From assembly GCA_016788825.1 (NCBI GenBank), contig JAEUSD010000003.1, positions 757 to 64,756 on the forward strand: a DNA stretch of 64,000 nucleotides, read 5' to 3'. A program made the translations under genes and the position numbers. This document shows, piece by piece, positions 1,311-64,000 of the stretch. Under the pieces are notes generated by a model. The model saw only the letters and a program-made list of their open reading frames with translations, had not been told where the DNA came from and ran no database searches. This DNA is from Candidatus Doudnabacteria bacterium. GTDB taxonomy: Bacteria > Patescibacteriota > Dojkabacteria > J137 > JAEUSD01. Every line of letters starts with the position of its first letter. The first letter of the stretch is position 1.

Positions 1311-1319
1311 AATTAGTTG

Positions 1320-10358: not shown

Positions 10359-10365
10359 TTGTCTT

Positions 10366-13530: not shown

Positions 13531-13561
13531 GGTAGCAGTCATAAGTAACGGGGCTGCTACC
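13531..13561 (+). terminator. Hairpin after the VWA gene (weak or partial terminator)
   Basis: Inverted repeat ggtagcag...(15-nt loop)...ctgctacc directly after the TAG stop, followed by tacttt and a T-run 20 nt later. The weak U-tract probably allows read-through into the next gene. Confidence 0.3.
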
Positions 13562-13583
13562 TACTTTAATTAATTATTATTTT

Positions 13584-28612: not shown

Positions 28613-28613
28613 T

Positions 28614-33981: not shown

Positions 33982-33982
33982 T

Positions 33983-35194: not shown

Positions 35195-35218
35195 AGTTTA
35201 TATTACTATACACAGTCA

Positions 35219-36217: not shown

Positions 36218-36312
36218 AAAAAGTTCTCAAATGATGTGATGTGTAGAAATTATTCTGATTTCTATCGGAAAGTTTTAAGGGAGTTTAAGCCATTACAAAA
36301 AAAATTGTAGTT

Positions 36313-40013: not shown

Positions 40014-41551
40014 AGTAAACTTTTAAACGGTAATTGTGCCTCAAGTGTAAACTCTACATTTGTGCCTGACTCCAAACTCCCCAAAGGTAGCACTACACTT
40101 TGGAAAATAGGCTTCTGTCTCATTTGGTCAGCCATATTCAATACATCCTGCCTGTTGATAGCAGTTCCTGAGACAGTGACCAGCCAATAAAGTACATTTG
40201 CTGGGGCCAATGGATCCTTCTCAATCGCCAAGCTATCGATTGTAATACCAGCGGGGGTGATTTCCGCGATTGTAGCCAGCACACGATCCCATTGGTAAAT
40301 GCTTGAGGTCACCTTTTGAATCTGTCCAGAATTCGTATTCAAATTGTTGATTACCCCCTCAATCTCGCTAATTCGTTCACTCTCACTTACCCTTTGGAAC
40401 GAGGCCTTCCTTTCTGCTGTCTGTACAAACTGTCCAGTTAGCCAGAAACTTACTGCCAAGCCTAGGAAAATCAGCAAAATCAGGTTGAGCAGAATGAAGA
40501 GCAGATACTTTTTGAGCACCTGTGATAGCTGGCTGCGTCGATACTCCACCTTTGCCACATCAGGCACCAAGTTGATACTAGTTGTGTTGGGATCGCCTTT
40601 GGCGATCCCTTTGACAGCTCCACCCATGATTGCAATATATTCATCCTTGTGTTGGCTATCTAAGTAGCTCTTGGTATCTTGATCTTCTATTTGGTAATTA
40701 ATCCTTTCGGCTTTTATTCCCAGCTTCTCGAAAGCAGGCAGCAGCACGTCGACCTTCTCAGTTATACCGTGCAAAAGGATTGGGACACTATTTATATCCT
40801 GTGTTTGACCAAAACAGTATTGAATGGCGGAGCTGATGGCCTGGACGATCATACGCACGTTGACGCTGGCATTGATAGGCCCAGTATTGATGTTCGTGGA
40901 AAAAGTTACTTCATTGTTGGAAACCACACTAAGCACGAGTGAGCTTTGGTCTACGTCAAGCAGAACACAGTTTTTGCTCAACGTTGAGTCTATAGTCTGC
41001 AAAAGGTTTGCGGAAGCTACCTCACGGGGGATAAACAACAAAGCCGTGAGCTTTGCGGCCTTTAGCATCGCCATGTAATTATCAATTATCTTCTTTGAAA
41101 CAGCTGCCAACTGCACCCGAGTCTTGTTGTTTTGATTGCCAATCCGATGCCAGTCCCAATACACTTCTTTTACCTCCATGGGAAGGAGTTCGGCAATGCG
41201 GTTTGTGATGATAGAGCGCAGTTCGTCTTTGGCCACCCCAGGCAGCTCCATAGTAATGAAGAAACTCTGAGACTGGGGTATAAGCAATATCACGTTCTCG
41301 GTCGAGGGAAGACGTGGGTGAGCGCTAGAAAGTAGTTCGGATAGCTCTTTGCCCACTGCTGCAGGATCTAAGATACTACTATCTTTGACCAGAGTCTCTG
41401 CAAACACTTTTTCTTGGAAATAGCGTAGGTTGTAGACATTCTTCTTTGCTGAATCAAACTGCAATATACGGATACGACTTCCATCTATTTCTAGACAGAT
41501 GCATGCGCTAAGATTTACTACTTTGTCGAACTCAATATCAACTAAAGCCAT
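40010..41551 (-). CDS. PilM-PilN fusion (actin-like ATPase domain plus TM plus PilN-like periplasmic domain)
   Basis: 513 aa. The N-terminus (ICLEIDGSRIRILQF) and central region are PilM/FtsA-like. A TM helix (LLFILLNLILLIFLGLAVSFWL) lies at about residue 340, followed by a PilN-like tail. Confidence 0.6.
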   Translation of the reverse strand: MALVDIEFDKVVNLSACICLEIDGSRIRILQFDSAKKNVYNLRYFQEKVFAETLVKDSSILDPAAVGKELSELLSSAHPRLPSTENVILLIPQSQSFFITMELPGVAKDELRSIITNRIAELLPMEVKEVYWDWHRIGNQNNKTRVQLAAVSKKIIDNYMAMLKAAKLTALLFIPREVASANLLQTIDSTLSKNCVLLDVDQSSLVLSVVSNNEVTFSTNINTGPINASVNVRMIVQAISSAIQYCFGQTQDINSVPILLHGITEKVDVLLPAFEKLGIKAERINYQIEDQDTKSYLDSQHKDEYIAIMGGAVKGIAKGDPNTTSINLVPDVAKVEYRRSQLSQVLKKYLLFILLNLILLIFLGLAVSFWLTGQFVQTAERKASFQRVSESERISEIEGVINNLNTNSGQIQKVTSSIYQWDRVLATIAEITPAGITIDSLAIEKDPLAPANVLYWLVTVSGTAINRQDVLNMADQMRQKPIFQSVVLPLGSLESGTNVEFTLEAQLPFKSLL

Positions 41552-41604
41552 GTATATAGAATATGATATATCAAAACCGCTGTCGAGCTAAACAGCAGCA
41601 TAAA

Positions 41605-42912
41605 CTAATTTATAGTCCAAGACTCAACGCTCAACACATTATCCGACCCAGGTGGAACTGGATCGGCAGTAAAATTGAACCCTTCGGCATTGGCAGTTAT
41701 ATTTGAGTCTACAGTCAAACTGGAGCGGTCCTCAATAAAAGCGGCATCGCCGGCCCACGCGGCACCTGTAATATTTACTGCATAGGTAAGTGGGCCGGAA
41801 TATTGGTCATGCTTAAATCGAATCTCTTGCTGAGAGAATATGATGCCAGTCACAGTCGCCCGGCAATCGCAGGAGTTTTGGTCCAAAAAGAAAACATCAT
41901 CTTTGGCTGCGATTGCCGGCAAGTCACTTCCAGCATTGTGGGTATAGTTGAGGCTTTCTACAATTATTTGGCCATTGGAAATGATTGTTCCTGTCAGGTT
42001 GTACGTTGTTCCGCTTGCAAACGTCAGGGTAGAAGTGGAATCAATGTAATGTACCCCACCACTCATTGTATTGCCATTAAGAGTGAGGAAATTGAGAAAT
42101 TGTTGCGGGGTTGTGTAGTACGTTCCTGCATTTATAGCCACTTGCTTGTAGTCATCGAACTTAAAGCTAGGAATCTGAATTGTGGGTACAGATAATCCAC
42201 TGTTGACAATTGCTTGGCCTGCGTAGCCACCAGATGTGATGTTTACGGCAACTTTGGAAAGGGCTACATTTTGCACATACCCATTGTTTGTAATCCTAAT
42301 GCGGTCAATTGCTCCCACATTACCTTCAATCTCGGTTGTCAAAGGATTGTCTTGTACTCTCGCACCATTGCGGATACTCGTGTTTGAGCCATTACCTTGA
42401 CCTGCGGCTGCCACATTGCCCTCGACCAGTGTTCCTTCGTCCAGATCAACATTATCGTTGCTCCACAAATTTCCTCTTAATCGGGCACTAGATTTGACCA
42501 GTTGGACATTCTCGCCAGCGAAGACTGCATAATCTTCTAGCAAATTTGCTTGTCCTGAGATGCTCACAGTGGCGATCAGCTGACGTCTCACAGGTTGATT
42601 GATGGTGGTAACTGTAACCTGTCGCTCATTTACTCCTGTGTTGGCAATCGCTATTTGAATAACCACGCCATCTTCGCTTGTATAGGTTTCTCCAACATAG
42701 TTGCTATTCCGTTTCAGCCTAATGAGTGCTTCTTCGAATGCTGCGTCCATAAATATCTGTGAACGAGTAGCTAGTACAGATGTGCCCTGAGAACGGTACT
42801 GGTTGACACTTATTGTAGCAGTAAGCAGAGACACGACCACCAGGATGATTGCCAACGCAGAAACGATAGCGATAGATGCCTGTGATTTTAGGTGACTTTT
42901 TTCGGTACTCAT
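41605..42912 (-). CDS. Large membrane-anchored beta-helix-like protein in the pilus operon (possible minor pilin or tip adhesin, non-canonical N-terminus)
   Basis: 435 aa with an N-terminal hydrophobic helix (IAIVSALAIILVVVSLL) but no G-F-T-L-x-E motif. The central region has Gly/Asn-rich repeats typical of a right-handed beta-helix (GNVAAAGQGNGSNTSIRNGARV...). Confidence 0.4.
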   Translation of the reverse strand: MSTEKSHLKSQASIAIVSALAIILVVVSLLTATISVNQYRSQGTSVLATRSQIFMDAAFEEALIRLKRNSNYVGETYTSEDGVVIQIAIANTGVNERQVTVTTINQPVRRQLIATVSISGQANLLEDYAVFAGENVQLVKSSARLRGNLWSNDNVDLDEGTLVEGNVAAAGQGNGSNTSIRNGARVQDNPLTTEIEGNVGAIDRIRITNNGYVQNVALSKVAVNITSGGYAGQAIVNSGLSVPTIQIPSFKFDDYKQVAINAGTYYTTPQQFLNFLTLNGNTMSGGVHYIDSTSTLTFASGTTYNLTGTIISNGQIIVESLNYTHNAGSDLPAIAAKDDVFFLDQNSCDCRATVTGIIFSQQEIRFKHDQYSGPLTYAVNITGAAWAGDAAFIEDRSSLTVDSNITANAEGFNFTADPVPPGSDNVLSVESWTIN

Positions 42913-43415
42913 ATGTATTTCAGGCTCATAGTTGACGTTATAGATTCACTTACCAGTGGTTTGATTAACCCGGCCGGGTAATTCTCCAGAGTGAGTTGCA
43001 GCTGGATCGCCCCGGCCGCATCGGGTGTAGACAGGTCTGTGACTACAAACAAAGATACATTCACGTCACCCCCAGTTATACTAACCGCAGAGCTTCCATT
43101 TTCTTGTCGATATACGCGGTTATCTTGTCTAAAATAGGTGATCTCTGCGGTATTAGGCAGTGTAATCACCAAAATATCGGTAGGCTCTACACGTACAAAA
43201 CGTCCAAAATACATGTCGTCACGGATACTCTTTACCAATATGCGCAAGTCTTCGTTTACATTTACGCGATCTTCGATCACAGTCTTAAATCTATAAACAG
43301 ACAAAATAATGTTTGCCAATACACCGGATACGATAGATAAGATCAAGATATACACAAGCACCTCAATGAGGGTAAACGCCGGTTTTGACTTTTGTTTAGT
43401 TAGAAGTTTTTCCAA
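42909..43415 (-). CDS. Type IV pilin-like / pseudopilin
   Basis: 168 aa. KPAFTLIEVLVYILILSIV is the prepilin N-terminal motif. Confidence 0.75.
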   Translation of the reverse strand: MEKLLTKQKSKPAFTLIEVLVYILILSIVSGVLANIILSVYRFKTVIEDRVNVNEDLRILVKSIRDDMYFGRFVRVEPTDILVITLPNTAEITYFRQDNRVYRQENGSSAVSITGGDVNVSLFVVTDLSTPDAAGAIQLQLTLENYPAGLIKPLVSESITSTMSLKYI

Positions 43416-43885
43416 TTTGTGAGTACTTGTTGAAAACTAACTTCACGTGGCTGACCACCGTACTCCCAAGTTACGGTGGCGTCGATAATGTACGTCTCAG
43501 GATCAGGCGTCCCCCCCGACGCCACCAGCTGCCCTTGGCCTCCGCGCTGGCCTTGTTCCAGCACGATAGAGCGCGTAAACTGATCAACCGTCTCTGTCCC
43601 CGGAACAAAGATGAACCCTTCTACTGGGTCTTCGGCAAAATGAAATGTCCCAGCTGCCAAGGAATTCCAGTCCTCATTCCGCTTGCTTGTGGTTAACTCG
43701 ATCAAGTCGTGCGCCATCAGTTCGGCCAGGGTGAATTGTCGGGCCAGCTCGGCTGTCTGCAGGGATTGTCTCAGTACATCGTAACCGCTTACTGCTAGGA
43801 TAGCCAACATAGCTACACTCAAGACTATCTCGATCAAACTAAAGGCTCGTATTGTTTTGCTAAAGGATGTCTTCGACAATGCCAA
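43400..43885 (-). CDS. Type IV pilin-like / pseudopilin
   Basis: 161 aa. IRAFSLIEIVLSVAMLAILAV is the prepilin motif. Confidence 0.7.
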   Translation of the reverse strand: MALSKTSFSKTIRAFSLIEIVLSVAMLAILAVSGYDVLRQSLQTAELARQFTLAELMAHDLIELTTSKRNEDWNSLAAGTFHFAEDPVEGFIFVPGTETVDQFTRSIVLEQGQRGGQGQLVASGGTPDPETYIIDATVTWEYGGQPREVSFQQVLTNWKNF

Positions 43886-44306
43886 GTGAATTAATAGTTA
43901 CTTCTCTGTTTATCCCGCCAGCCGAGACAGAGATAGAGCCCGGCTCGCTTACCCTCCCTGTGAAATTGGAGAAGGTGATAATGTCATTTGTAAAAGTTGT
44001 AGACACAACCACGATAGAGTCGAGTGTATAAGTGCGGTTCTCAACATTATTACTAGAGTAAGCTGCTCCGGGGAACAGGATGTAACTTTCAGGCAGAAAC
44101 TTGATAGAGTAGTCATTGCTATTATCGTTCCCCAAGGCATTTTGTCTAGCAAGCTGTATATTTGAAACTAATTCTTTGAGTTCAGAATCCAGCACGGTGT
44201 TTACGTGATAGCTGACGATGCTGGCCACAGCAATCACGCCAACGATGGAAGTAAGCGTAATGACGAGAATAATCTCAATCAGTGTAAAGGCATTCAGTTT
44301 CTTCAT
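43860..44306 (-). CDS. Type IV pilin-like / pseudopilin
   Basis: 148 aa. MKKLNAFTLIEIILVITLTSIVGV is the prepilin motif. Confidence 0.75.
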   Translation of the reverse strand: MKKLNAFTLIEIILVITLTSIVGVIAVASIVSYHVNTVLDSELKELVSNIQLARQNALGNDNSNDYSIKFLPESYILFPGAAYSSNNVENRTYTLDSIVVVSTTFTNDIITFSNFTGRVSEPGSISVSAGGINREVTINSLGIVEDIL

Positions 44307-45526
44307 TTTATACTGTTTACTCCTGAAAGTAATTGGAAGATCGGGGTAATAACAGACAAAGCAACTGCAACTACTACCCCTCCCATAAATAAAAGCATCA
44401 CTGGTTCTATGGCGGCCGATAGGCCGCCAAGTAATGTAGATACCCTTGCCTCGTAGAATTCAGCAATGTTTGTCAGTCCCTTGGCGACTTCCCCTGTACG
44501 TTCACTGATAGACAGAACCCGAACTTCGAAGGGCGAGAACAAGTGAGGGTACTTTTTCAGACTATCTGCCAAAGTATTCCCTACAGTTAGATCCTCCTTA
44601 ATTGTTACTAAGACCTGTTTGTAAGATTCATTTTTCAAACTGTCACGGACCACATCAACAGACTCTAGGATATTTACACCGCTAGATAGAAGTGAGCCGA
44701 AAGTGCGAGCAAACAAGGCGACATTCAAGGACTTATTTATTCCGCCGATGATGGGAAATTTGAGCATAAACCTACTGCGTCTGAGCCTGAAGTTCTCTGA
44801 GCGCTTACTCGCTGTCCTGTACGCATAAATACCTACTGCAGCAAGCAAAGCCACGAAAATAAAGTTGTTACGCACCAAGTCGCTGAGTGAAATGAGTACT
44901 CGGGTAAAGACAGGTAGCTCTAGTCCACTACTTCCAAAGAACTCCTGCACTTTAGGAAAGACAAATACCAACAGCACAAATATCACTGTAAACAAAGTTG
45001 TGAACAATATGATTGGGTAAATCATTGCGTTGCGCACCTTTGACTTCAACTCATTCGATTTTTTTAGTTGATTTGCCAAGTGCCGCAAACTTTCGGCCAA
45101 AGTTCCTGTTGCCTCACCCACTTTTACCATTCCTACGTACAAGGGCGGGAACAATTTAGGGTAGGCTTCGAAACATTCCGAAAGTTTGCGACCGTTACGC
45201 AAACTGAGTTCCGTATCTTTTACAAACTTACGCAACAGCGGCTTGTCCAGGTCTTCATAGAAGGCTTCTAGTGCCTCATTGATGGACAAGCCGGATTCCA
45301 ACATCGAAGCAAAGTACTCCAAAAACTGAGCTTTGTCTGTTTCACTGACTCGCTTTAGAAACTTATCCGTAAAACTTTCTTTGGCTTCGGGGAGTAAGCG
45401 CAGGTTGACAAGAAATAACCCTTCTTTGTCTATAAGTGCGCGCACCTCGTCCTCTGTATCAGCAAGGACAACATTACTGACAATTACACCTTCTGAAGTT
45501 GTGGCTGTATATTTGTATTCTCCCAT
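44303..45526 (-). CDS. pilC: Type IV pilus platform protein PilC (GspF family)
   Basis: 407 aa with two GspF repeats and 3 TM segments. Sits directly downstream of pilB. Confidence 0.85.
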   Translation of the reverse strand: MGEYKYTATTSEGVIVSNVVLADTEDEVRALIDKEGLFLVNLRLLPEAKESFTDKFLKRVSETDKAQFLEYFASMLESGLSINEALEAFYEDLDKPLLRKFVKDTELSLRNGRKLSECFEAYPKLFPPLYVGMVKVGEATGTLAESLRHLANQLKKSNELKSKVRNAMIYPIILFTTLFTVIFVLLVFVFPKVQEFFGSSGLELPVFTRVLISLSDLVRNNFIFVALLAAVGIYAYRTASKRSENFRLRRSRFMLKFPIIGGINKSLNVALFARTFGSLLSSGVNILESVDVVRDSLKNESYKQVLVTIKEDLTVGNTLADSLKKYPHLFSPFEVRVLSISERTGEVAKGLTNIAEFYEARVSTLLGGLSAAIEPVMLLFMGGVVVAVALSVITPIFQLLSGVNSIK

Positions 45527-45534
45527 CGATATTA

Positions 45535-47238
45535 TTACTCTTGTGCTACGCGCATTACTTCTTCTAAGGTGGTCACCCCGTCATCCACCAGTCGAATACC
45601 GTTGATAAACATTGGCATATGTTCTTGTCTGATCATCTCTGCGGCAAGCTCATGTACTGGAACTCTGTCGATTATCAATCCTCGTACCTTATCTGTTATC
45701 TCAAACACCTCATAAATTCCTATTCGACCTTTGTAACCTGAATTCCCGCAACGAGCACAGCCCACTGGCTGGTGCAAAGATACAGAAGCTAGTTTCTCCT
45801 TCTCCTCTGCGGGTAAGGCAATTTCTTCCAGCTGCCTCTCGATAAGTTTTTTGGAGATACTATCAATTTTTATTTTTTGTTTGCAGTCATTACATAACTT
45901 TCTAACCAGTCGCTGGGCAATGACAAGCTGCAAAGTAGAGGCAAGTAGAAAAGGCTCTATGCCCATGTCAATAAACCGGGGAATAGCTCCTGGGGCATCG
46001 TTCGTGTGTAAAGTTGACAATACCAAGTGTCCGGTCATTGACGAGTGGATCGCCATGTTGGCAGTTTCCTCGTCACGGATCTCTCCGACCATGATAATAT
46101 CAGGGTCCTGTCGCAACAATGACCTTAGCCCATTTGCAAAGGTTACCCCAATGGCCGGGTTCACCTGCGTTTGATTGATCCTAGGCATACTGTACTCAAT
46201 CGGATCCTCAATAGTATTGATATTCACATCTGGCCGGTTAAGTATCTTCATTACGGTATACAAAGTAGTGGTCTTTCCGCTTCCTGTCGGCCCAGTTACT
46301 AAAATCATGCCATCTGGCCGTTGGATCTTCTCTTCAATAACCTTCAATTCGCTTCCCGAGAACCCCAGGTCTTTGAGTGTAAGGTTCTTCACCGATTCGT
46401 CCAAAATTCTAATCACAATCTTTTCCCCATGGTATGTAGGCAATACAGACACACGCAACGATATGGGAAGATCGTTTACTCGCAAACTGATACGACCATC
46501 CTGAGGACGACGATGTTCGTCGATCTTCAGATCCGCCATAATCTTAATGCGCGCTACCAGTAGTGAATGTGTGCTCTTCAAGAGAACCAACATGTCGTTT
46601 AAGATTCCATCCATCCGGAAACGGATGATCACATTGGCTTCAGTTGGTTCGATGTGAATATCGCTGGCGCCTTCGGCAATTGCATACTCCAGGATCGAAT
46701 TCACGGCTTTGGTGATGGGAACGCCTTCGGCGATGTCCTTGACATCAAGCGTCTTACCAAAGCCGCGTTTGTCGTCTTCGAGAACTTTTGAGAATAAATT
46801 TTGAATGTCGGACTTGTAACCTTTGATGACTGATTGAAATGACGCCAAATCAGTAATGTAGGTCTCTAGCTCTTTACCAGTTCGTCTTCGGATGTACTCC
46901 AGCGCGTACAAGTCACCGGGGTTTACCATCGCCACCTGCAACTTATGACCATTTTCGCCAAAGACAATCACTTCGTGTTCAATGGAGAATTCCTTGGGAA
47001 TCATCTGCAAGAAGTTTGGGGTTATCAAAATCTTCCCTAAACTAACATACTTAAAGCCATACAGCCTAAGAAAATAGTCATTAATCAGTTGGGGGGTAAC
47101 GAGCTTATCCTTGATTAACTGGATTGCTACCAGGGTAATGTCTCCTCCGCTTTCTGCGATAATCTCAGACAACACCTTCTCATCTACAACTTTGTCATCT
47201 AGGAATGCTTTTTTTAGATTTTCTAGACTGTATTGCAT
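45535..47238 (-). CDS. pilB: Type IV pilus assembly ATPase PilB (GspE family)
   Basis: 567 aa with Walker A (VTGPTGSGKTTTL), Asp and His boxes and a tetra-Cys (CNDC...CARCGNSGYKGR). Confidence 0.9.
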   Translation of the reverse strand: MQYSLENLKKAFLDDKVVDEKVLSEIIAESGGDITLVAIQLIKDKLVTPQLINDYFLRLYGFKYVSLGKILITPNFLQMIPKEFSIEHEVIVFGENGHKLQVAMVNPGDLYALEYIRRRTGKELETYITDLASFQSVIKGYKSDIQNLFSKVLEDDKRGFGKTLDVKDIAEGVPITKAVNSILEYAIAEGASDIHIEPTEANVIIRFRMDGILNDMLVLLKSTHSLLVARIKIMADLKIDEHRRPQDGRISLRVNDLPISLRVSVLPTYHGEKIVIRILDESVKNLTLKDLGFSGSELKVIEEKIQRPDGMILVTGPTGSGKTTTLYTVMKILNRPDVNINTIEDPIEYSMPRINQTQVNPAIGVTFANGLRSLLRQDPDIIMVGEIRDEETANMAIHSSMTGHLVLSTLHTNDAPGAIPRFIDMGIEPFLLASTLQLVIAQRLVRKLCNDCKQKIKIDSISKKLIERQLEEIALPAEEKEKLASVSLHQPVGCARCGNSGYKGRIGIYEVFEITDKVRGLIIDRVPVHELAAEMIRQEHMPMFINGIRLVDDGVTTLEEVMRVAQE

Positions 47239-54059: not shown

Positions 54060-54620
54060 ATGCTAAAAGGCTTCGAAATTGCCAAAACCACATTTCTGGT
54101 ACTCATGTTGTTTGGAATTATGACCGCTGCATTTGTCAGCACACTGGCATTGTCCCCCATTGCGACAAATTTGAACGATACTCAGGTTGCTGGCATATCC
54201 AGCGAAGGGGAGATACTCTCCAACTTTATCCCGCTTTCGATCCAAGATACCAATACAACCTCAGATATGTATCAGACACAACTTGTAGAAGTTTCACCAA
54301 GGGCATTCAATTATTTCGCCAAAGTTGCGTTTGGAGATAAGCAAGAAATCAGCCCTAAGTTCATTGCAATCAAAAACGATAACAGTTCTACAGTTACTAT
54401 AACTGTTTCGGCGATTGTACCCCAAAGTGTACAGTCGGCATTAGATATATTTGTAGTTGAACCTGGCCGTACCCACTCGGTCGCTGACGATCAACCGCCA
54501 TATACAAAATCCATTACCCTGGACGTTCCGGCTGGACAAACTTTAGAGTTGGGGCTGACTTATTTTGCAGTACGCGCAATTAACTTCCCAGTTGATATAG
54601 CTTTCCAGCTTACCTACTAG
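54060..54620 (+). CDS. Secreted or membrane-anchored hypothetical protein
   Basis: 186 aa with an N-terminal hydrophobic anchor (TTFLVLMLFGIMTAAFVSTLAL). No motif. The stop overlaps the lepA stop by 4 nt (convergent). Confidence 0.4.
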   Translation: MLKGFEIAKTTFLVLMLFGIMTAAFVSTLALSPIATNLNDTQVAGISSEGEILSNFIPLSIQDTNTTSDMYQTQLVEVSPRAFNYFAKVAFGDKQEISPKFIAIKNDNSSTVTITVSAIVPQSVQSALDIFVVEPGRTHSVADDQPPYTKSITLDVPAGQTLELGLTYFAVRAINFPVDIAFQLTY

Positions 54621-56527
54621 CCGCTACGCAAGGCGGTCATAAATACTTCTTTGGGTACTTCGACTTTTCCAATTGCTTTCATCTTTTTCTTACCCTTCTT
54701 TTGCTTATTCAAAAGCTTCATCTTACGCGTTTCGTCCCCTCCGTACAGTTTGGCGGTTACATCTTTGCGATAGGCTTTCACATCGGCGCGGGCCAAAATA
54801 TTTCCACCAATGGCAGCCTGGATTGGGACACTAAACTGTTGCCTAGGAATGATTTCTGCCAACTTCTCAACCAAGGTGCGTGATTTGCGCAGCGCGCTTT
54901 CGCGATGCGCAAGGAAAGAAAGTGCCTCAGCTTCTACTTGGTTGATCAATATATCTACTTTCACAATATCCCCTGGACGGTACTCCAAGAAAGAATAATC
55001 CATGGAAGCGTAACCATGACTAAGGGATTTAAGCTGGTCGAAGAAATTCACCATAATTTCCAAACTCGGAATTTCGTAAACCAATACTGCATGTTTTGCA
55101 CCTGTACTAGATTTGCTTAGAAATTCCATTGACTTGTAAACTCCGCGTTTTTGCTGACACAATTCCATTACACCACCGACATACTCTTCGGGAGTAAAAA
55201 TTTCCAGCTTGACCCATGGCTCGAGAACCACGTCGACAAGTGTGGTCTCCGGAAAATCTGCTGCTGTTCGCACGCGATAAGTACCATCTTCTTGCAGGTT
55301 CGCAGGATTGAAGCGTGGGATTTTGGTGTAGTCGGTTGTAATCAGTTTTAGCCGAAACTCGACTGTGGGAGATGTGCTGATCAAGTCGATATCAAACTCT
55401 CTCTCCAACCTTTCTTGCACGATTTCAAGGTGAAGCAAGCCAAGAAACCCGCAGACAAATCCAGTCCCCAGCGCTTGAGAGTTCTCTCGTTGGTAAGAGA
55501 TAGCTGCGTCGTTAAGCGCCAATTTCTCCAGTGCATCTTGAAACTCGGAAAAATCTGCCGCATCTACGGGATAAAGGCTCGCAAAAACCATCGGCTTTGC
55601 CGGCTGATAGCCCGGCAAAGCCTCAATCTCTAAGTGTCCTTTATTCTCACGAAAATGGGTGATTGTATCTCCTACATGCACCTGACGAATATCTTTAAGT
55701 CCTGTCGCCACGTATCCAACTTCCCCTGCCTCCAGTGCTGTAGAAGTTACCATCACGGGTTTTAGATAGCCAACCTCGATGGGGGTGTTCACGGTTTCGC
55801 TTCCGATAAAGTATAGTTTATCGCGATTTGTGATCTTCCCCTGCTCAACTTTAACCAATGCCACCACACCTTTGTACTCATGAAAGAATGAGTCATAGAT
55901 CAGCGCTTTTAGTGCGCTCCCTTCGGGGGCAACCCTAGGTGCTGGGACTCGCTCCACAATTGCATCCAGAATTTCTTTGACTCCGATCCCGCTTTTCCCC
56001 GAAGCCAAGATAATTTCTTCCTCTTTGAAACCAAAAGTATCCATCATCTCCAACTTTGTGCGATCCACATCTGCAATATCCATGTCTACTTTGTTGATCA
56101 CTGGAATGATTGCCAAGTTCTGCTCCAAAGCCTTGAAGTAAGTAGAAAGCGTCTGAGCTTGTACTCCCTGAGTTGCATCGACGAGGAGCAATGCACCTTC
56201 GGAAGCAGCCACAGAGCGTGAAACTTCATACGAAAAGTCTACATGGCCGGGTGTGTCGATCAGGTTCAAAACGTATTCACCCTGGGACGGCTTCTGCTGC
56301 TCGCTAGAACCCTCCTGTCCCTGATAATCGTACAGCATCCTCGCCGTCTGTAGTTTGATTGTGATACCACGCTCCTGTTCCAATTCTAGCGTGTCCATCA
56401 CACGGTCTTTGATGTCTCGTTTGGCCAAGGTTCCAGTGACTTCCAAAAGTCTATCTGCTAAAGTAGACTTACCGTGATCAATGTGAGCGATGATGCAAAA
56501 ATTGCGTATTCGTGAGATATCTGACAT
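54617..56527 (-). CDS. lepA: Translation elongation factor 4 (LepA)
   Basis: 636 aa. IRNFCIIAHIDHGKSTLADRLLE (G1), DTPGHVDF (G3), NKVD (G4). LepA-specific C-terminal domain plus a Lys-rich tail. Confidence 0.95.
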   Translation of the reverse strand: MSDISRIRNFCIIAHIDHGKSTLADRLLEVTGTLAKRDIKDRVMDTLELEQERGITIKLQTARMLYDYQGQEGSSEQQKPSQGEYVLNLIDTPGHVDFSYEVSRSVAASEGALLLVDATQGVQAQTLSTYFKALEQNLAIIPVINKVDMDIADVDRTKLEMMDTFGFKEEEIILASGKSGIGVKEILDAIVERVPAPRVAPEGSALKALIYDSFFHEYKGVVALVKVEQGKITNRDKLYFIGSETVNTPIEVGYLKPVMVTSTALEAGEVGYVATGLKDIRQVHVGDTITHFRENKGHLEIEALPGYQPAKPMVFASLYPVDAADFSEFQDALEKLALNDAAISYQRENSQALGTGFVCGFLGLLHLEIVQERLEREFDIDLISTSPTVEFRLKLITTDYTKIPRFNPANLQEDGTYRVRTAADFPETTLVDVVLEPWVKLEIFTPEEYVGGVMELCQQKRGVYKSMEFLSKSSTGAKHAVLVYEIPSLEIMVNFFDQLKSLSHGYASMDYSFLEYRPGDIVKVDILINQVEAEALSFLAHRESALRKSRTLVEKLAEIIPRQQFSVPIQAAIGGNILARADVKAYRKDVTAKLYGGDETRKMKLLNKQKKGKKKMKAIGKVEVPKEVFMTALRSG

Positions 56528-56562
56528 AGGTAGGATTATACCTGGAAATATCTCTTAAACCA

Positions 56563-59500
56563 ATGAAACCACAATATACTAAGAAGACTTTTTCTAACTG
56601 GGGAAGAGAGCCACTAGCTACACGGTTAGAGACAGAATTGGTTGATTTCCAAAGCAAGATTGATAGTGAAGGGGTGGATATAAGTGAACTTAATGCCGTG
56701 GCTGATCTGGTTATTGCTGTAGGCCGAAAAGCAGATGCTCTAGCTCACAAAATTCTTGCTCAAAGTCACCTGTTTGATTTCTGGTTAAACTTCTTTCAAT
56801 ATCTTTCTGAAGAAAACCCACCGAAGCTAAAGACAATACTTGATACCCCGATTGCTAATTATCCTGATAGCTTTGTCACTGCTTTATGTTTTTGGGCCTG
56901 CAGGTCGGGTAAGGATTATAGCAACGGGATTGTCATTACTGAAACTTCTGGCAAGCTTTCTCGCATAAACAGAGCTATAAAAAGTAACGAGTATCTGGTT
57001 CCCAGTAAGACTACCTTTAGGGACTGTGTAGCCGCTGCAATGTATACACCCCCATCTGAATTCTCACAAGTGCGCCAGACAGACTATATGAAGTTGGTCT
57101 TCCCCTACCTGGCATGTCTTCCCAACAGTTACTGGGATCGGATTCAACAACAAAGCATATTCCCAGAAAATGACATCAGCCTGATTTCATCTCTTAGGAG
57201 GAAGTGGGGTCTATACAGTGAAGAAAAACTAAAAGGCAGCATTAAGAATTGGGTGGAAGAGCTGACTAACGGTGGAATTGGTGATCGCTGGGTTGCTTCT
57301 ATAACTCAGGATCTAGCGGTAAATGGCTATATAAGCTCAGGGTACCTACTTTATAGTTATCACGAGGAAGACTTGCCACAATCAGGTGCTATTTTAGAGG
57401 AAGCCCGGCACAAGAACAACGCTGCTGGAGACTATTTAGTCTTCTATGAGGAGCGGAGGAGTCACCCGGTACTTCACCTTCCGGATCTTCCGCCCCTGCA
57501 TAGGTTAGCTACACAACCTCTCTCAATAAATACAGAGATATATCAGACGGAGTACGAACAATTAGTAAGGGGGGAGATAGAGAAAGTGTCAATTACCAGA
57601 TTGATCACTTCTGCACAATGGCTGATTGCCGAGTTGGCCGAAGCAGAGACAGTGGATCAAGGAGATTGGTGGAAGATGCTACTCTCTCCTGACCGTATAT
57701 GGTTCCTGAGTCATTGTTGGGACAGTCTTTCAAACGAGACTAAGACACGAATTGAGTTGATTGCAGAACTTTTGTTTCGGGATAAATCTTTCGATTGTCT
57801 AAAAACAGTCAAAATGATGGATACACCACTCGATGTGCTTGATCGCCAAGCACAGGCTGGGAATCCGATCGATGTCAAGATTTTGGGCGACCTCCCCGCA
57901 AAAGTGATGTCTGCAATACAAGCAAAAGATACTTACCCCTATCTCTATCCCTATGCACTTAAGGCACTTCTTTCGAACCCGCAGAACCGGGTTAACGGTT
58001 TCGATACAGAAAAGCTGATCGCGGAGCTTATAGAACAACATAAGCAAGAGAGGGGGATCAACCTAGCGGGTGATAAGGGAAGTGTTCCTGGTGTTGTACG
58101 TAATTTCGTTAATAAATACTTATCAAAGCCACTAGGCGTAGGTAACTTCCGAGAATTTGCTGATAACCCTCAAGAAGTGGAGACTTTTATTAAATTTACC
58201 ACTCGTCTGAAGTTGCCTAATAGGCTAACCGCCGAAGCTGTTGCTTTGGCTGACCAATTTCCTGATTCCTTGCGAGAAGCTGATTATGAAGTTCGATATT
58301 TACCTGTACATGGTCTGGGGCACAGCACGAGGGTGACAGCCAATGATAATTATCATTGGGAATTAGTTCAAAGTAATTTAGGATCGAGTGCTGAAGTAAA
58401 GAACCGATCAAATAACGAGGAATTCTTGAAGGGGGTGGTTCTCTATTGGCAAAACGCTGAACTGTCACTTACAGATAGGGTAAAAACTAAGGAGGCATAC
58501 TATCTGGCTAGGCGTTACCTCTTTATTCATAAACTGCGCAAGATACTTTCCCTTAAGAATTATTTCCAACATGGGATGACCTACTTAGTAGAACGGCTAA
58601 TTCGGGATTTTGGGTTTGATACAAAAGAAGCTCTTCCTGAATTTGTAGAAACAGCACTACTTCTTGAGGATCCATCTAGTGGGCTAGATTATTTTACAAG
58701 TTTGAGAGGCGTGCTTGATGAACTTACACGGCAGGGGACAGTCTTTGAGGTTGACTTGGGATCGGCCATGAAATACCTTTTTAAGCACGATGCAAGTACG
58801 CATACTCCCTCGGCTATCTTGTGTAGCTATTTAAGTAGCAAGTCATTGGAAGAAGAGGTTGCGGCTTCAAGAGAGAGAGAACTTAGAGAGGAAGAGAGGC
58901 AAGCTTTGGAAGCAATACTACTTCAACAGCCAGATAGTTCAAGTATGCTAAAGGGCTTAATACTAAAAGAATTGACGCCTATCGCTGAGGTAGCGAAAAG
59001 AGTCCTTGCTGATCTCCCTCCAGCTGTAATGGATGTGATTATAAACATAATCCATTTCAGGTCGAAACCCTCGCGACTTAACTTGAGTGGCATACTTGAG
59101 ACTGCGGGGCAAGTTTATGAATTCATTTCCTATGTGGCCCGTCTTCCGTACAGTAGTTTGTTAGTTGAAGTAGCAGCAGACGCTGTAGATCTACTTCCTG
59201 ATGATAGGCAGTACGTATTTCAACATACGCTCTTGGCAGCAACACTTTCGGGCCAGGGTTCCGTTTATGAAGGCAAAAAAGCCTTGCTTGAGGGAAACTT
59301 GCCGGATTTATTGGTACATTTTGTCAACAGAAAAGATGCAACTCTAGGAGTTTTACGGGCGTTCTCGGAGTCTGGGGAGCTGAGTCAGTTTCAGCTTGTT
59401 AAGTACAAGGCTGCTTACTTTCTGGCTCTACGTGCCTACTTCTATCATCAATGCAGGGAATTGAAAGATGCAGAACAGCTCAATCCAGAGTCTTTGGTCC

Positions 59501-62500
59501 AGACAATTGGCAACTGTGGCTACGAAGCTACGGATGCGCAGATCGAACTTCTGGAAGCTCTAAAGCTTCTTCCCAATCTCAAACCTGACCTATACACAGC
59601 TATTGTAGACTGCATAAACACATCCCCACCCAGTTCTCCGCTGAGAAAACTTACAGATCTTCCTAACATTATAGCCAATACAAAAACGCCAGAGCTGTTT
59701 AGCTCTTGGGAGGCGCCACGTAACGAGAAGGTTCGAGCGCTTACTTTGAACAGGTCTCTTTGCGAAAGGATGGTTATAGAAGGTAATACCCCACCAGAAT
59801 TTCATGAAGATGTATTGCATCTAGTAGCTGGCCTAGACCCTACAGGGCAATCAGCCGAGACACAGAACCCAGAAGTCTTCCTTGAATCACTTAGTACTAG
59901 CGTTTACGAGCGTGTTCCAGCAATCGCAAGAATGATAGATGTTGTCTATCCAAACAGAAGTAGAATAAATGAAATCAATGAAGAAGATACCCTACAGCTT
60001 ATTCGATCTCTAGACTTAGCTGACCTCGGTACTACAATCTATATTGTGCGAGCACTTTATTATACCTTTGTAGAAATTACGGGAAATGTCAATGATGCCT
60101 TCTCCCAAGTAGACACTTTTTTGCAAAAACTAATCAATCTTGGAACAGAAACAGGATTAGATATAGGCTACCTTGCATACCTGGACAGAGACTTAACAAG
60201 AAGGCCTACCAGCCAAGGTGAGAACATCAAGCTATTCCTGTGCGGTTTGTCAGGACATACAATACTTCCCAACCACTCTTGGGGTGATGACGATGAAGAG
60301 TTGCTCGAAACAAAAATTTCTAAAGACCTTCCCATTCTTGTGTATACACTAATTGCACTGAAGTACGGGGATCTTAACGAAGAGTTACTGGAATATATTT
60401 ATGATGGTAAGGCACAGAGTCAACTGGCATATTTACTATCTTCTCAAATTCAGAATAAGTTACAAAAACCGAATGAGGTAGCAGGATTCAGAAAACAGCT
60501 GCTTGTGCAACTTTATCATACTGGGGATATCGTGCGGGCAGATCTACCTGAGGAACTGCTTTCCAATGTAGAAGTTATGAAACCGATGAACCTATTTACT
60601 TATCGTTTCAACACTCCTAACCTCGCTTATGAATCCCTGGGTGAAGCTGTTGCGGATATAGAATTGGAGGAGTTGCTACCCCAATTAAATAACTATAAGG
60701 TTCCCCAAAAAGCAATTCTAAACGAGAGTGAACTACAGGTGCTTATGCAGTTTATTTTCTTCTACGAAAAGGGATTACTTCCCAAGTTGAAACTTTATAA
60801 TGTCTACGTTCAAGCCAGAAGAAAGTTTGCAGAGATAAATTCGAGAGATTCTAGGTTTATTCAGAGCTTGGTTAATGATGTGGACCTTTCCACTTTAATC
60901 TACCTCATTAGGCATTCACTAATCAACTCTTCCCGAGTAAGCAAGTATATTGATAGTCAGGGGCTCGATTTCCCCCTACACACAAAAGGTATTTTAAGTA
61001 TCGCTGAAAGCGCCGATCATATTTCTTATCTGGAATCTATATCTGAAGAGAAACTCCAATTAGTCTTAGCCTACCTCGCTTATGACTGCGAACTCCTTGA
61101 ACAATTACTAATTAATTCAAACGGATTTACAAACGATTCTCCGTGGGCTGGGTTACTTCTAGAGGCCGTCCTTCGCTCAGACAGAATGGTTGTAGGGAAA
61201 TACCACACCCCGGTGCTAGACAGACTGCCTTATTCGAAAGTCGTGAAAAATATTGATTCAGTAAGGCTTTGGTCTGAGTTAAGGTCAGCTCAGACTTACC
61301 CCCACTTACGTACTGACCTTCACAGGATTAGTCTAGTTACAGCTCCTATCGACGGAACGACTATCACATCAGACATCTTGGGATCCTTGTTACTTGGAGA
61401 AGATCCAGACAAAAACACCATAGAGTTTCTTAAAAACATGATCGATTCGACCTTATCTGATATGAACGAGTTGATAGGAATGCAAGCGGGTACAATAATT
61501 GGCCCATCTGCACAAGAGGCTACTTCATTTGAGGGGGTAAGTTTCAAGATCTTGCTTCCAGACGAAGAAAAGCTTCCCAAAGCTAAACTAGGGATCCTAA
61601 GGGGTCTAGTTAGTCAGTTTTTAGCTTATTATGAGAAGCTAAATCTTTTAGACCCAGAGTACATACTGAATGGGATTCCCTCCCGATATCCAGAGCTAGT
61701 TAAAGTTCTAACCCTCCTTTTTGAGCTACAAATATTTAATGTTGGTGATTTGCAAGGAGCGAGAAATGTTGTACGACAACATATACTCATTCAGCTGGCC
61801 ACAGCAAAATGGATAGAACCTGCGCAGCTTACTGTGGCTATGGTGGTGAAAGAGTTCAAAGAACTATGCTTAGGGGTTTCGGTGCCAGGGGTTTTTTGGC
61901 AAGCTGGGATAGACAAGTTTAAAGAAAAAACAGGAGGTATAGCACTTGGTGAAGTACCCAACCAAACAGGTGAGGGTATAACTTGGGGAGCAATCAACAG
62001 ACTGACCTTCCCAATTTACCAGCAACTGCTTCCAGATGTTATTGGTTTGCAGTCGGCCAGGAAACGTAGAAACGCTGATTTATCTGAGGGAATGCTTATG
62101 CCAGGACAAGAAGGCCGCGGCGCTGAAATTTTACTTGTAAACCGTTTGGAAAAGAGTCGGGCCGGTAGGGAGGTGCGTGCGCGCGAAACTAAGCTACTGA
62201 GAGATCTTGGGGACATCGAGCAGAGCCTTCATCACCAAATTTCTGGTAGTCAGTCTATCCGTGAGCCTGATATCAAGCAACAGGAGTACATAGCTACTAA
62301 ATTGGTAGAATTCGCCCGGTTTGTGGTTGAAAACGAGGTGATGTTTAATAAGGGGCAAAGCTATATTCAAATTGAAGCCCTATTTCGACAGCTTTTGGCA
62401 GTTCAAGATAAGTCCAAGTTGAGGGATGCAATCGCAGGGCTATATAAAGGTACAGATGACGTTCAGAAAATGCTGGGTAATCCAATATTCAGCTGGGTAC

Positions 62501-64000
62501 TAATGCTGGCAAACGAAGCTAACAGAAGGTTGTTTATAAACTACGTGAGCTCATCTCCGGAAAACTTTCTAATGCTGCTAAGATACATGCTGGTTGGTGT
62601 CGGGCGCCACATTGTGTTAAAGAAATCAGATAGTGCTTTAGCAGATTTATTGATCGAACCCCCGGCACGGTCAGATGTAAATAATGACCTAAAGGCCAAA
62701 CTAGTTGATTTTGCTGAGACCCTCTGTGAGGACCAAACTACACCAACGCCTCAGCAGCGTATGCTCCCAATTATCCGGGATATAGAGAAGATAGTCATGT
62801 TGGCAGCCAATTTACAGGTAAATCCTAGGTTAGATTCTGAAGTCGAGGATTGGCTGCACCGAACCACTCAAGTGTTTGATTCAGTTATCGGTGATTGGGC
62901 AGAACCGGATCAAGTAGTTGTGAGGAGACGAGAGCTTGCAGAGGGGCAGTGGGGTAACACTCTGGTAACCGGACTAGAAATAAATAAGAGAGAGTACGTA
63001 GAGTTAAACAAGTTGCTCTCGAAACAGTTAAGAAGATACGGGATGATGGCAGTGATACCAATAATAATTATGATAAGCTCATTTCTATTCACCAACAGAG
63101 ACCAAGTTGCAAAAGTGTTCGTAAGTCTTGAGCAAGACTCAAGTGAGGAGGTAGACCCTTCATTAACAGGTCTAGACATTGTTGACTTGGCAGAACATTA
63201 TCAACAATATACGCCAGAATCTATAATCCTGGAGAATGTTGAGAGCCGAGTAATCGGAAAAGTACTACATAATTCACTAGGAGCTTCGGGAGGAAGCGGA
63301 GTTAACCTGGCGGTCCCCTACAGTGGTCAGATATTACCAGCACTGCAAAGCATGACAGGGAATAAACCTCCAACTGAAAGGCTTACAAATATCGATCAGC
63401 TCAGAGTATTACCTGACCAAAGTTTTGTCTATACAGTGTATGCTCCCAAGGTGATTTGGCCATCTGACTGGAGTAGAAAGATAGAGAAACTAGTCCTTCT
63501 AGGTGAATGGGAGGGAGAGCCTGAGTATGACATCTACGGGAATCTTATAGTTGATGATAGGGATGTTGGTAAACGCATTGTTATAGTGGAAGTTGCAAAC
63601 CCTGATTACAAGCTTCTTGGTAAGGGGATACAATTAGTCGAAGATCCGTATGAGAATCCGGTCCATGTCACCGCAGGGCGAGGAGAAGACATCCGAGGAC
63701 TACTGCTGGACCCTGCTATTGAAGCGATTTATGTCGGTATATATGACGGTCAGCCGACTGGGATTGACGCGCTTAATCGGCTGCTCTCTCTACAAAGCAT
63801 GCTATGGGAGCAGATCTTTTCTCGTCACAGGTATTCGCCTCAACTCCCTATGGAGTCGGAGACTAATCAGCAGCTAATGGAGAGTGTTATACAGGGGGTG
63901 TTATCGGCGTATTATTGCACAGTGGCAGGCAATGTTTCCGCAGAACTCTATGCTGACCTGGGTTATCCAGTTACTTTCATAAATTCTACTCCGGTATATA
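56563..64000 (+). CDS. Giant protein of unknown function, 3'-partial (at least 2479 codons, runs off the window end)
   Basis: I read every codon in frame 1 from the ATG at 56563 to 64000 and found no TAA/TAG/TGA. An in-frame TAG sits at 56527-56529 just upstream. The gene is missing from the ORF track, presumably because it has no stop. The product is Leu-rich, with no signal peptide, one hydrophobic segment (YGMMAVIPIIIMISSFLF, about nt 63043-63093) and a recurring xDLPxx(V/L)(M/L) motif. Confidence 0.8.
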   Translation, partial: MKPQYTKKTFSNWGREPLATRLETELVDFQSKIDSEGVDISELNAVADLVIAVGRKADALAHKILAQSHLFDFWLNFFQYLSEENPPKLKTILDTPIANYPDSFVTALCFWACRSGKDYSNGIVITETSGKLSRINRAIKSNEYLVPSKTTFRDCVAAAMYTPPSEFSQVRQTDYMKLVFPYLACLPNSYWDRIQQQSIFPENDISLISSLRRKWGLYSEEKLKGSIKNWVEELTNGGIGDRWVASITQDLAVNGYISSGYLLYSYHEEDLPQSGAILEEARHKNNAAGDYLVFYEERRSHPVLHLPDLPPLHRLATQPLSINTEIYQTEYEQLVRGEIEKVSITRLITSAQWLIAELAEAETVDQGDWWKMLLSPDRIWFLSHCWDSLSNETKTRIELIAELLFRDKSFDCLKTVKMMDTPLDVLDRQAQAGNPIDVKILGDLPAKVMSAIQAKDTYPYLYPYALKALLSNPQNRVNGFDTEKLIAELIEQHKQERGINLAGDKGSVPGVVRNFVNKYLSKPLGVGNFREFADNPQEVETFIKFTTRLKLPNRLTAEAVALADQFPDSLREADYEVRYLPVHGLGHSTRVTANDNYHWELVQSNLGSSAEVKNRSNNEEFLKGVVLYWQNAELSLTDRVKTKEAYYLARRYLFIHKLRKILSLKNYFQHGMTYLVERLIRDFGFDTKEALPEFVETALLLEDPSSGLDYFTSLRGVLDELTRQGTVFEVDLGSAMKYLFKHDASTHTPSAILCSYLSSKSLEEEVAASRERELREEERQALEAILLQQPDSSSMLKGLILKELTPIAEVAKRVLADLPPAVMDVIINIIHFRSKPSRLNLSGILETAGQVYEFISYVARLPYSSLLVEVAADAVDLLPDDRQYVFQHTLLAATLSGQGSVYEGKKALLEGNLPDLLVHFVNRKDATLGVLRAFSESGELSQFQLVKYKAAYFLALRAYFYHQCRELKDAEQLNPESLVQTIGNCGYEATDAQIELLEALKLLPNLKPDLYTAIVDCINTSPPSSPLRKLTDLPNIIANTKTPELFSSWEAPRNEKVRALTLNRSLCERMVIEGNTPPEFHEDVLHLVAGLDPTGQSAETQNPEVFLESLSTSVYERVPAIARMIDVVYPNRSRINEINEEDTLQLIRSLDLADLGTTIYIVRALYYTFVEITGNVNDAFSQVDTFLQKLINLGTETGLDIGYLAYLDRDLTRRPTSQGENIKLFLCGLSGHTILPNHSWGDDDEELLETKISKDLPILVYTLIALKYGDLNEELLEYIYDGKAQSQLAYLLSSQIQNKLQKPNEVAGFRKQLLVQLYHTGDIVRADLPEELLSNVEVMKPMNLFTYRFNTPNLAYESLGEAVADIELEELLPQLNNYKVPQKAILNESELQVLMQFIFFYEKGLLPKLKLYNVYVQARRKFAEINSRDSRFIQSLVNDVDLSTLIYLIRHSLINSSRVSKYIDSQGLDFPLHTKGILSIAESADHISYLESISEEKLQLVLAYLAYDCELLEQLLINSNGFTNDSPWAGLLLEAVLRSDRMVVGKYHTPVLDRLPYSKVVKNIDSVRLWSELRSAQTYPHLRTDLHRISLVTAPIDGTTITSDILGSLLLGEDPDKNTIEFLKNMIDSTLSDMNELIGMQAGTIIGPSAQEATSFEGVSFKILLPDEEKLPKAKLGILRGLVSQFLAYYEKLNLLDPEYILNGIPSRYPELVKVLTLLFELQIFNVGDLQGARNVVRQHILIQLATAKWIEPAQLTVAMVVKEFKELCLGVSVPGVFWQAGIDKFKEKTGGIALGEVPNQTGEGITWGAINRLTFPIYQQLLPDVIGLQSARKRRNADLSEGMLMPGQEGRGAEILLVNRLEKSRAGREVRARETKLLRDLGDIEQSLHHQISGSQSIREPDIKQQEYIATKLVEFARFVVENEVMFNKGQSYIQIEALFRQLLAVQDKSKLRDAIAGLYKGTDDVQKMLGNPIFSWVLMLANEANRRLFINYVSSSPENFLMLLRYMLVGVGRHIVLKKSDSALADLLIEPPARSDVNNDLKAKLVDFAETLCEDQTTPTPQQRMLPIIRDIEKIVMLAANLQVNPRLDSEVEDWLHRTTQVFDSVIGDWAEPDQVVVRRRELAEGQWGNTLVTGLEINKREYVELNKLLSKQLRRYGMMAVIPIIIMISSFLFTNRDQVAKVFVSLEQDSSEEVDPSLTGLDIVDLAEHYQQYTPESIILENVESRVIGKVLHNSLGASGGSGVNLAVPYSGQILPALQSMTGNKPPTERLTNIDQLRVLPDQSFVYTVYAPKVIWPSDWSRKIEKLVLLGEWEGEPEYDIYGNLIVDDRDVGKRIVIVEVANPDYKLLGKGIQLVEDPYENPVHVTAGRGEDIRGLLLDPAIEAIYVGIYDGQPTGIDALNRLLSLQSMLWEQIFSRHRYSPQLPMESETNQQLMESVIQGVLSAYYCTVAGNVSAELYADLGYPVTFINSTPVY

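Follow-up and report, generated by a model that had tools for sequence, protein, structure and literature searches.

What kind of gene fills the last 7.4 kb of a 64,000-nucleotide stretch of a Candidatus Doudnabacteria bacterium genome, and what could its very large product be doing in a bacterium of the Candidate Phyla Radiation (CPR)? The stretch, positions 757 to 64,756 of contig JAEUSD010000003.1 from a metagenome-assembled genome (MAG), is hereafter called the window, and the gene in question runs off its right-hand edge. An initial annotation had described a 7.4-kb open frame from an ATG at 56563 to that edge, taken to be a single, uncalled giant gene of a CPR genome without any assignable domain. 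Translation of frame 1 from this ATG to position 64000 indeed yields 2479 codons with zero stops, which together with the negative family searches described below bears out the description. The gene is, however, not uncalled: along its entire length (100%), the window fragment matches with 100% identity GenBank entry MBL8014792.1 (P0001 / JNK26_01225), a protein of 2818 aa, encoded on a contig of 73,238 bp and already annotated as ‘MAG: hypothetical protein’ of Candidatus Doudnabacteria bacterium. The mechanical list of open reading frames (ORFs) for the window leaves out frames that run off its edge, which explains why the giant frame is missing there. Taken as a whole, we read the locus as a native, single-copy orphan gene whose product would be a membrane-tethered, cytoplasmic helical scaffold with a small outward domain, a reading that we consider plausible rather than probable.

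The first part of this reading is nearly certain: the giant frame is a genuine native protein-coding gene. Its start at 56563 is the first ATG downstream of a TAG in the same frame (56527-56529), and the window part (56563..64000, forward strand) encodes aa 1-2479 of the 2818. Judged by length, the stop of the 8.4-kb gene would lie at ~65017-65019, about 1 kb beyond the window. At the base composition of this region, stops should turn up every ~16 codons, which puts the chance of 2479 stop-free codons at ~10^-67.7, while on the opposite strand inside the giant frame the longest ORFs reach just 82-89 aa. When scored by the codon usage of the window, all of the eight 900-nt tiles favour the giant-gene frame (8/8), with a per-codon log-likelihood of -4.01 to -4.06 versus -3.94 to -4.08 in 21 reference genes. 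The GC content at third codon positions (GC3) is low, 0.40 versus 0.47, yet within the native spread (z = -1.26), and the tetranucleotide profile of the gene correlates with that of the window at r = 0.82, other segments ranging from 0.75 to 0.89. Furthermore, direct or tandem DNA repeats able to seed a mis-join were sought in the giant-gene region, and none were found. It is the stop-free length, the frame-specific native codon usage, the native composition, the lack of such repeats and the call by the GenBank Prokaryotic Genome Annotation Pipeline (PGAP) that lead us to accept a real gene. That the frame would instead be an artefact, either a chimera created in assembly from at least two genes or an open frame without function, draws on its origin from a MAG and on the lack of a homologue to corroborate the gene boundaries. 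This explanation is extremely unlikely in view of the chance probability given above, the uniformity of the coding statistics in one frame over all tiles, and the fact that both halves of an internal duplication (see below) lie in one frame. A mis-join at repeated DNA was rejected for want of direct or tandem repeats.

Does the protein belong to any known family? No family was found at E<=1, either by a Pfam scan of aa 1-2479 or by scans of the full length against NCBIfam, PADLOC and PHROGs, and thus no clear homology to a known enzyme family emerged from these four libraries. Sequences of the PDB returned only noise (E = 0.53), and a PDB profile search was likewise negative. There was no match in tblastn searches of 50,697 phage and 72,556 plasmid records, nor in a scan of viral contigs by pattern and tblastn, nor among JGI metagenome contigs searched by pattern and tblastn, first with the protein and then with a profile of its internal paralogues. 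An exhaustive phmmer (HMMER) search with aa 1619-2818 against 1.84 billion cluster representatives retrieved the protein itself only, as did a word-indexed protein search with aa 1-2479; when run with the 663-aa C-terminal part, the latter search gave no match at E<=10 and missed even the identical P0001, such that its negatives need caution. In agreement with these results, MBL8014792.1 forms a singleton cluster among ~15 billion sequences. The giant protein is a lineage-restricted orphan.

Such isolation could reflect the lineage rather than the gene, and a control is provided by a 435-aa ORF without Pfam match that belongs to the type IV pilus cluster of the same window. For this ORF, four relatives with 71, 53, 52 and 46% identity are present in Logan assemblies, and their pilus clusters are syntenic with that of the window. 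The contigs of relatives L081-L083, which cover the pilus cluster only, carry no match to the giant protein. Poor sampling of the lineage explains the isolation partly, as even the closest lepA is rather distant and neighbouring genes are hardly shared (see below). However, since relatives are in the databases and yet no homologue of the giant protein can be detected there, not even as a fragment, it is the giant gene itself that is isolated, be it by very fast divergence, by its loss from relatives or by a gain specific to the lineage.

What the protein consists of has to be read from its own sequence. Compared to the other proteins of the window, Leu (1.29x), Arg (1.30x) and Glu (1.18x) are over-represented in it and Lys (0.85x) is depleted, so that of the Leu/Glu/Lys richness claimed initially, the first two residues hold and the third does not. 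Low complexity makes up ~4-5% of the sequence. A regular-expression scan for Walker A, HExxH, CxxC, DEAD, GxGxxG, HKD, NKxD and LPXTG motifs found none present, in line with the initial remark that Walker A, HExxH, CxxC and other catalytic motifs are absent. On the other hand, the tripeptide DLP occurs seven times where about one is expected (p ~5e-4), and the extended motif DLPxxΦΦxxΦ four times versus 0.07 expected, a count reached in 0 of 5000 shuffles. These four copies, all on the forward strand, are DLPAKVMSAI (aa 443-452, 57889..57918), DLPPAVMDVI (aa 817-826, 59011..59040), DLPILVYTLI (aa 1255-1264, 60325..60354) and DLPEELLSNV (aa 1327-1336, 60541..60570), and a looser copy, TDLPNIIANT, is found at aa 1031-1040 (59653-59682, same strand). 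The four motifs listed in the initial annotation are all in place, starting at aa 442, 816, 1031 and 1326 (nt 57886, 59008, 59653 and 60538).

Internal repeats were sought by comparing the protein with itself. BLAST self-comparison gave nothing, whereas an all-against-all Smith-Waterman scan of tiles revealed one clear duplication, with tile scores of 83-85 versus a null maximum of 50. The pair consists of aa 507-714 (58081..58704, forward strand) and aa 821-1014 (59023..59604, forward strand), which align with a Smith-Waterman score of 118 (z = 13.6, 300 shuffles) and 28% identity in a MAFFT alignment. The DLP motif at aa 817 (nt 59011) stands at the head of copy 2, and copy 1 reaches upstream to the motif at aa 443 (nt 57889), after which it has ~60 aa inserted relative to copy 2. 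A second candidate pair, aa 1115-1163 and 1401-1450, was rejected (z 2.2), and a third copy of the module, sought within the giant protein with a two-copy profile, was not found. As such, the ‘array of divergent repeated modules’ proposed before comes down to one ~200-aa pair plus an over-represented DLP motif. Based on the duplication (z = 13.6) and the excess of the motif, we propose that the N-terminal body probably grew at least partly via tandem duplication of a helical module of ~200-280 aa, headed by DLPxxΦΦxxΦ.

How, then, would such a protein be placed in the cell? Hydropathy and a Hessa-type insertion energy single out exactly two membrane-grade segments in the 2818 aa. The first predicted transmembrane helix (TM1; MMAVIPIIIMISSFLFT, aa 2161-2177, 63043..63093, forward strand) is preceded by KQLRRYG and has a Kyte-Doolittle (KD) 19-residue mean of 2.0 and an insertion-energy sum of 1.16; the second (TM2; LKILLVGGVINSILIVILI, aa 2557-2575, same strand, beyond the window) is followed by SRIHRRNVARR and has values of 2.61 and -0.2. 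The next-best segment has an energy sum of 6.1, and only TM1 and TM2 fall below 6, using the scale values of Hessa et al. 2005. The hydrophobic segment next to RRYG that was noticed initially is thus TM1, while its description as a lone TM helix fails because of the second, stronger one. Between the two lies a loop of ~380 aa (aa 2178-2556), which follows from the MBL8014792.1 sequence and the TM positions and is predicted to be extracytoplasmic; its first 302 residues are in the window (63094..64000, forward strand). The tail after TM2 counts 243 aa, beyond the window.

The predicted orientation draws on the ends of these helices and on the start of the protein. Net flanking charges are +3 before and +1 after TM1, and +1 before and +4 after TM2, which fits the positive-inside rule for an N-in/C-in protein. 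As had been stated before, no N-terminal signal peptide or TM was seen in the KD and Hessa-type scans: the KD scan shows the first hydrophobic segment no earlier than aa 814, and nothing of TM grade precedes aa 2159. The N-terminal region proper (aa 1-436, 56563..57870, forward strand) is hydrophilic by both scans, without signal peptide or TM, and carries non-canonical DLP tripeptides at aa 270 and 308. In insertion by Sec/YidC, long domains at the N-terminus are not moved across the membrane when a signal peptide is lacking. Because of the flanking charges, the lack of an N-terminal hydrophobic stretch and this translocation rule, a topology with ~2160 aa inside, a loop of ~380 aa outside and 243 aa back inside is the best reading of the sequence, and the huge cytoplasmic N-terminal region that was suggested initially remains the best reading as well. 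We regard the architecture as a whole as fairly probable.

Structure prediction adds a cautious hint as to the fold. In an AlphaFold2 model of aa 1-1200, DSSP assigned helices only (pLDDT, the predicted local distance difference test, 38.9), in keeping with the alpha-helical character noted before, while the inter-TM loop was modelled as mixed strand and helix (pLDDT 34.0). The giant protein thus appears helical in this low-confidence model. The absence of families at E<=1 and of catalytic motifs, the helix-only model and the enrichment in Leu and Glu are the reasons why we propose that the ~2160-aa N-terminal body, cytoplasmic by the predicted topology, is non-enzymatic, probably all-alpha and solenoid-like. 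The TM1-TM2 hairpin would then expose a mixed alpha/beta domain of ~380 aa outside the single CPR membrane, with the 243-aa tail, probably helical, returning to the cytoplasm. In this arrangement, the protein could act as a structural tether or scaffold, its ectodomain contacting the cell’s own wall, a surface layer or the surface of a host, and its large cytoplasmic platform organising or anchoring partners at the membrane site of the tether. We put forward such a scaffold or tether function tentatively, as a possibility that is open to considerable doubt. The giant protein, in any case, does not look like a catalyst, nor like a classical extended surface adhesin.

Several points weigh against this proposal. 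The AlphaFold2 models, made without an alignment, have a mean pLDDT of 34.0 (aa 2128-2818) and 38.9 (aa 1-1200), which makes them unusable as structures, and when both were run against the PDB with Foldseek, no match reached E<=0.001 and no TM-score exceeded 0.12. For aa 1-1200, the best Foldseek E value was 2.5e-3 at rmsd 30-60 A, with a list of Ski3, CRM1, neurofibromin and nucleoporins; this list we consider noise, and it is not used as evidence, because any long helical model attracts such generic solenoids. The TM and topology calls come from simple hydropathy and charge counts rather than a trained predictor. Exhaustive HMMER covered aa 1619-2818 of the sequence, whereas for aa 1-1618 the coverage comes from the profile libraries and the word-indexed search. 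With no homologues found, neither conservation nor co-occurrence lends support to any function. Lastly, for most of the large CPR proteins published so far, exposure on the cell surface has been inferred (PMC8080830, PMC13059738), which sets a prior for an external role.

This prior favours a surface adhesin or host-interaction protein, the bulk of which would be displayed outside with the hydrophobic segments serving as C-terminal anchors. A place on the surface and a role in attachment have been inferred for large membrane proteins in Vampirococcus and in Absconditicoccaceae (PMC8080830; PMC13059738), at least the ~380-aa loop of the giant protein is predicted to be external, and a type IV pilus cluster ~9 kb off together with a VWA/DUF11/Ig-like surface protein are consistent with an attached lifestyle. 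However, a body of 2160 aa has neither a signal peptide nor an N-terminal TM that could bring it to the outside, and the charge distribution favours N-in. Moreover, PKD, FN3, DUF11, integrin, WD40 and Ig-like domains are all without a match (Pfam, aa 1-2479), an LPXTG motif is lacking, and the predicted secondary structure, albeit of low confidence, is all-helix and not beta-rich. We therefore consider the adhesin unlikely. The giant membrane proteins of Vampirococcus lugosii measure 1392-4163 aa and those of Absconditicoccaceae >1500 aa, and host attachment was proposed for both (PMC8080830; PMC13059738). Like them, the giant protein is of CPR origin, very large (2818 aa) and provided with two TM-grade segments. 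Most of them, though, carry WD40, PKD, DUF11, integrin, fibronectin III or saposin domains along with signal peptides or TMs for surface display, whereas the giant protein has no adhesion domains, ConA included (Pfam aa 1-2479; NCBIfam full length), no signal peptide, and a body that is predicted to be cytoplasmic.

The same predicted topology invites another explanation, in which the protein would span the envelope as a sensor or signal transducer: a ligand or contact would be sensed by the ectodomain between the TMs, and the giant cytoplasmic regions would transmit or integrate the signal via novel domains. An ectodomain between two TMs, with cytoplasmic flanks, is the canonical sensor topology, known from histidine kinases and chemoreceptors, and the giant protein shares this predicted arrangement with two-TM sensors such as histidine kinases and methyl-accepting chemotaxis proteins. 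However, the Pfam scan of aa 1-2479 found no transmitter domain, be it HAMP, HisKA, HATPase, MCP-signal, GGDEF, PAS or another, and scans of the full length against NCBIfam and PADLOC add no transmitter match. In addition, canonical sensors have a short N-terminus instead of the 2160 aa that precede TM1 here, and no partner regulator adjoins the gene, lepA being its sole visible neighbour. A sensor is accordingly improbable.

As to that neighbourhood, lepA (EF4 GTPase; 54617..56527, reverse strand; Pfam GTP_EFTU 1.2e-52, LepA_C 1.6e-42) is transcribed divergently, with an intergenic spacer of 35 nt between the two starts (56528..56562). It is the visible neighbour of the giant gene within the window, the 3’ end of the giant gene and its downstream neighbours lying beyond. 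The initial annotation had suggested that synteny with lepA be looked for, but the arrangement is not conserved: 0 of the 80 related loci fetched have a giant-protein match or a giant ORF adjoining lepA. Among 185,579 species representatives, the closest lepA reaches no more than 65% identity, and of the 12 window genes queried just one recurs as a flanking gene in related loci (a group-1 glycosyltransferase, 24-26% identity, in locus L045), a weak match. Hence lepA is context alone, without a functional link to the giant gene. A sigma-70 consensus was searched for within 56000-57200 and none was found; given this and the 35-nt spacer, both promoters would lie inside the opposite gene or be non-canonical. 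As a separate observation, the window lepA is closest (65%) to those of MAGs labelled Dojkabacteria and ‘Patescibacteria group’ (loci L001, L002 and L045 were compared), and the lepA of the Doudnabacteria-labelled MAG L045 is just 50% identical to it. The label Candidatus Doudnabacteria of the source MAG may thus be imprecise, or the lineage may be deep and poorly sampled.

A gene without relatives in a locus that is not conserved might also be a mobile-element cargo or a delivered effector or toxin of the polymorphic-toxin kind, acquired horizontally and for that reason absent from relatives. Its singleton status among ~15 billion proteins, though relatives of the lineage are in the databases, its non-conserved lepA neighbourhood and its slightly low GC3 (0.40 versus 0.47) would fit. 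The GC3, however, stays within the native spread (z -1.26), as do the codon usage and the tetranucleotide profile; on this composition (GC3, tetranucleotide) a recent horizontal transfer was rejected. Phages, plasmids and viral contigs gave no matches, and in or beside the visible part there is no PHROG, PADLOC, RHS, toxin or integrase signal. Unlike polymorphic toxins and RHS effectors, the giant protein has no match to RHS/YD, filamentous-haemagglutinin-repeat or toxin families (Pfam, NCBIfam, PADLOC). Moreover, an identity of just 28% between the internal paralogues points to a long evolution as one gene. A mobile or toxic origin is therefore very improbable.

Which known proteins come closest to the giant protein? 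The nearest analogue in kind is found in the large orphans of Candidatus Sukunaarchaeum mirabile, a descriptive class and not a homologous family. In this reduced symbiont genome, the large orphans exceed 1000 aa and reach up to 4756 aa (bioRxiv 10.1101/2025.05.02.651781); they have no sequence similarity, are predicted to be alpha-rich with TMs, left AlphaFold uninformative, and have a role in host interaction that was hypothesised only (bioRxiv 10.1101/2025.05.02.651781). The giant protein is likewise longer than 1000 aa, without homologues, TM-bearing and, at low confidence, alpha-rich. The Sukunaarchaeum proteins differ in being archaeal, in having at least four predicted TM helices each (>=4 versus two) and in that several are adjacent and co-oriented, and no sequence relationship with them is detectable (phmmer, aa 1619-2818: self only). 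The giant proteins of Omnitrophota are another case of oversized ORFs with large unannotated stretches in ultra-small bacteria, which for the Omnitrophota are probably predatory or symbiotic. They exceed 30,000 aa and have many TM regions and divergent SecA DEAD domains (bioRxiv 10.1101/2023.11.21.568195), and tile-wise structure prediction showed attachment and carbohydrate-degrading domains, some of the genes lying near type II/IV secretion-like genes (bioRxiv 10.1101/2023.11.21.568195). These are 10-30 times larger than the 2818 aa with two TM-grade segments described here, where nothing of this kind was seen and no SecA DEAD domain is present (no Pfam, Walker A or DEAD match). With eukaryote-type alpha-solenoid scaffolds of the HEAT/ARM/TPR kind (importin-beta, CRM1, Ski3, neurofibromin), the likeness is functional only, a long non-catalytic helical body that could serve as an interaction platform; compared to HEAT, ARM, TPR and PPR proteins, the giant protein has no Pfam repeat matches, a unit of ~200 aa instead of 35-50 aa, and a membrane anchor.

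Other parts of the window bear on the cell surface as well. The type IV pilus cluster (39411-47238, reverse strand) comprises PilB (T2SSE), PilC (T2SSF), two N-methyl pilins, the 435-aa ORF without Pfam match, a PilM-PilN fusion and a 200-aa ORF, and its gene order is kept in the three Logan-assembled relatives L081-L083 (33-79% identity), with different flanking genes. In L083, a 601-aa fragment that is divergent from pilB (1-1803, reverse strand) runs off the end of the contig; it has an N-terminal TM and Cys-rich repeats (CNDGxDNDGDxxIDC...GCFP...GGGGACNP), and is unrelated to the giant protein. A candidate module for the surface or for host interaction that appears more conventional is located at 9174-15182 (forward strand), where a PAS-HisKA-HATPase kinase and a Cache-domain protein flank a protein of 1054 aa (10366-13530); the latter combines VWA, DUF11 and Ig-like (Big_13) domains, and its C-terminus weakly matches AhpC/TSA. 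A low-GC island at 31439-38044 (forward strand; GC 0.38-0.39 versus ~0.45 elsewhere, GC3 0.32-0.42 versus 0.47) holds six co-oriented genes, namely a GT2, three GT4/GT1 glycosyltransferases, an alpha/beta hydrolase and another GT2, and may be a horizontally acquired surface-glycan cluster. Genes of fermentative energy metabolism are also present: one for a protein with a PPDK_N domain (2910-4946), an ADP-forming acetyl-CoA synthetase-like gene (25040-27163), and those for a 2-oxoacid:ferredoxin oxidoreductase, of which both the alpha/gamma and the beta subunit are encoded (27728-30383).

So what does the giant gene mean for its bearer? Large hypothetical proteins are to be expected in CPR genomes, and MBL8014792.1 had already been deposited. 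Large orphan membrane proteins are a recurrent, unexplained trait of ultra-small symbionts, and the giant protein stands out among them in that its bulk is predicted to be intracellular and that no relative is detectable despite the presence of sister lineages in the databases. It thereby offers a clean example for studying the origin of giant orphan genes and the speed of their divergence. With a typical CPR genome of ~1 Mb, by our own estimate, the gene would take up roughly 1% of the genome, and a frame of 8.4 kb that is kept intact under strong genome reduction is almost certainly important to the organism. More speculatively, and this we consider rather improbable, the giant protein may be the founder of a new class of envelope-spanning tethers in episymbiotic ultra-small bacteria, in which a solenoid of ~200-aa DLP-headed modules is coupled via a TM hairpin to a small surface domain and organises the site of host contact, e.g. 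pilus or attachment machinery, from the inside. If true, this would make it a bacterial analogue of the cytoskeletal proteins of attachment organelles, one that diverges beyond recognition even between sister species.

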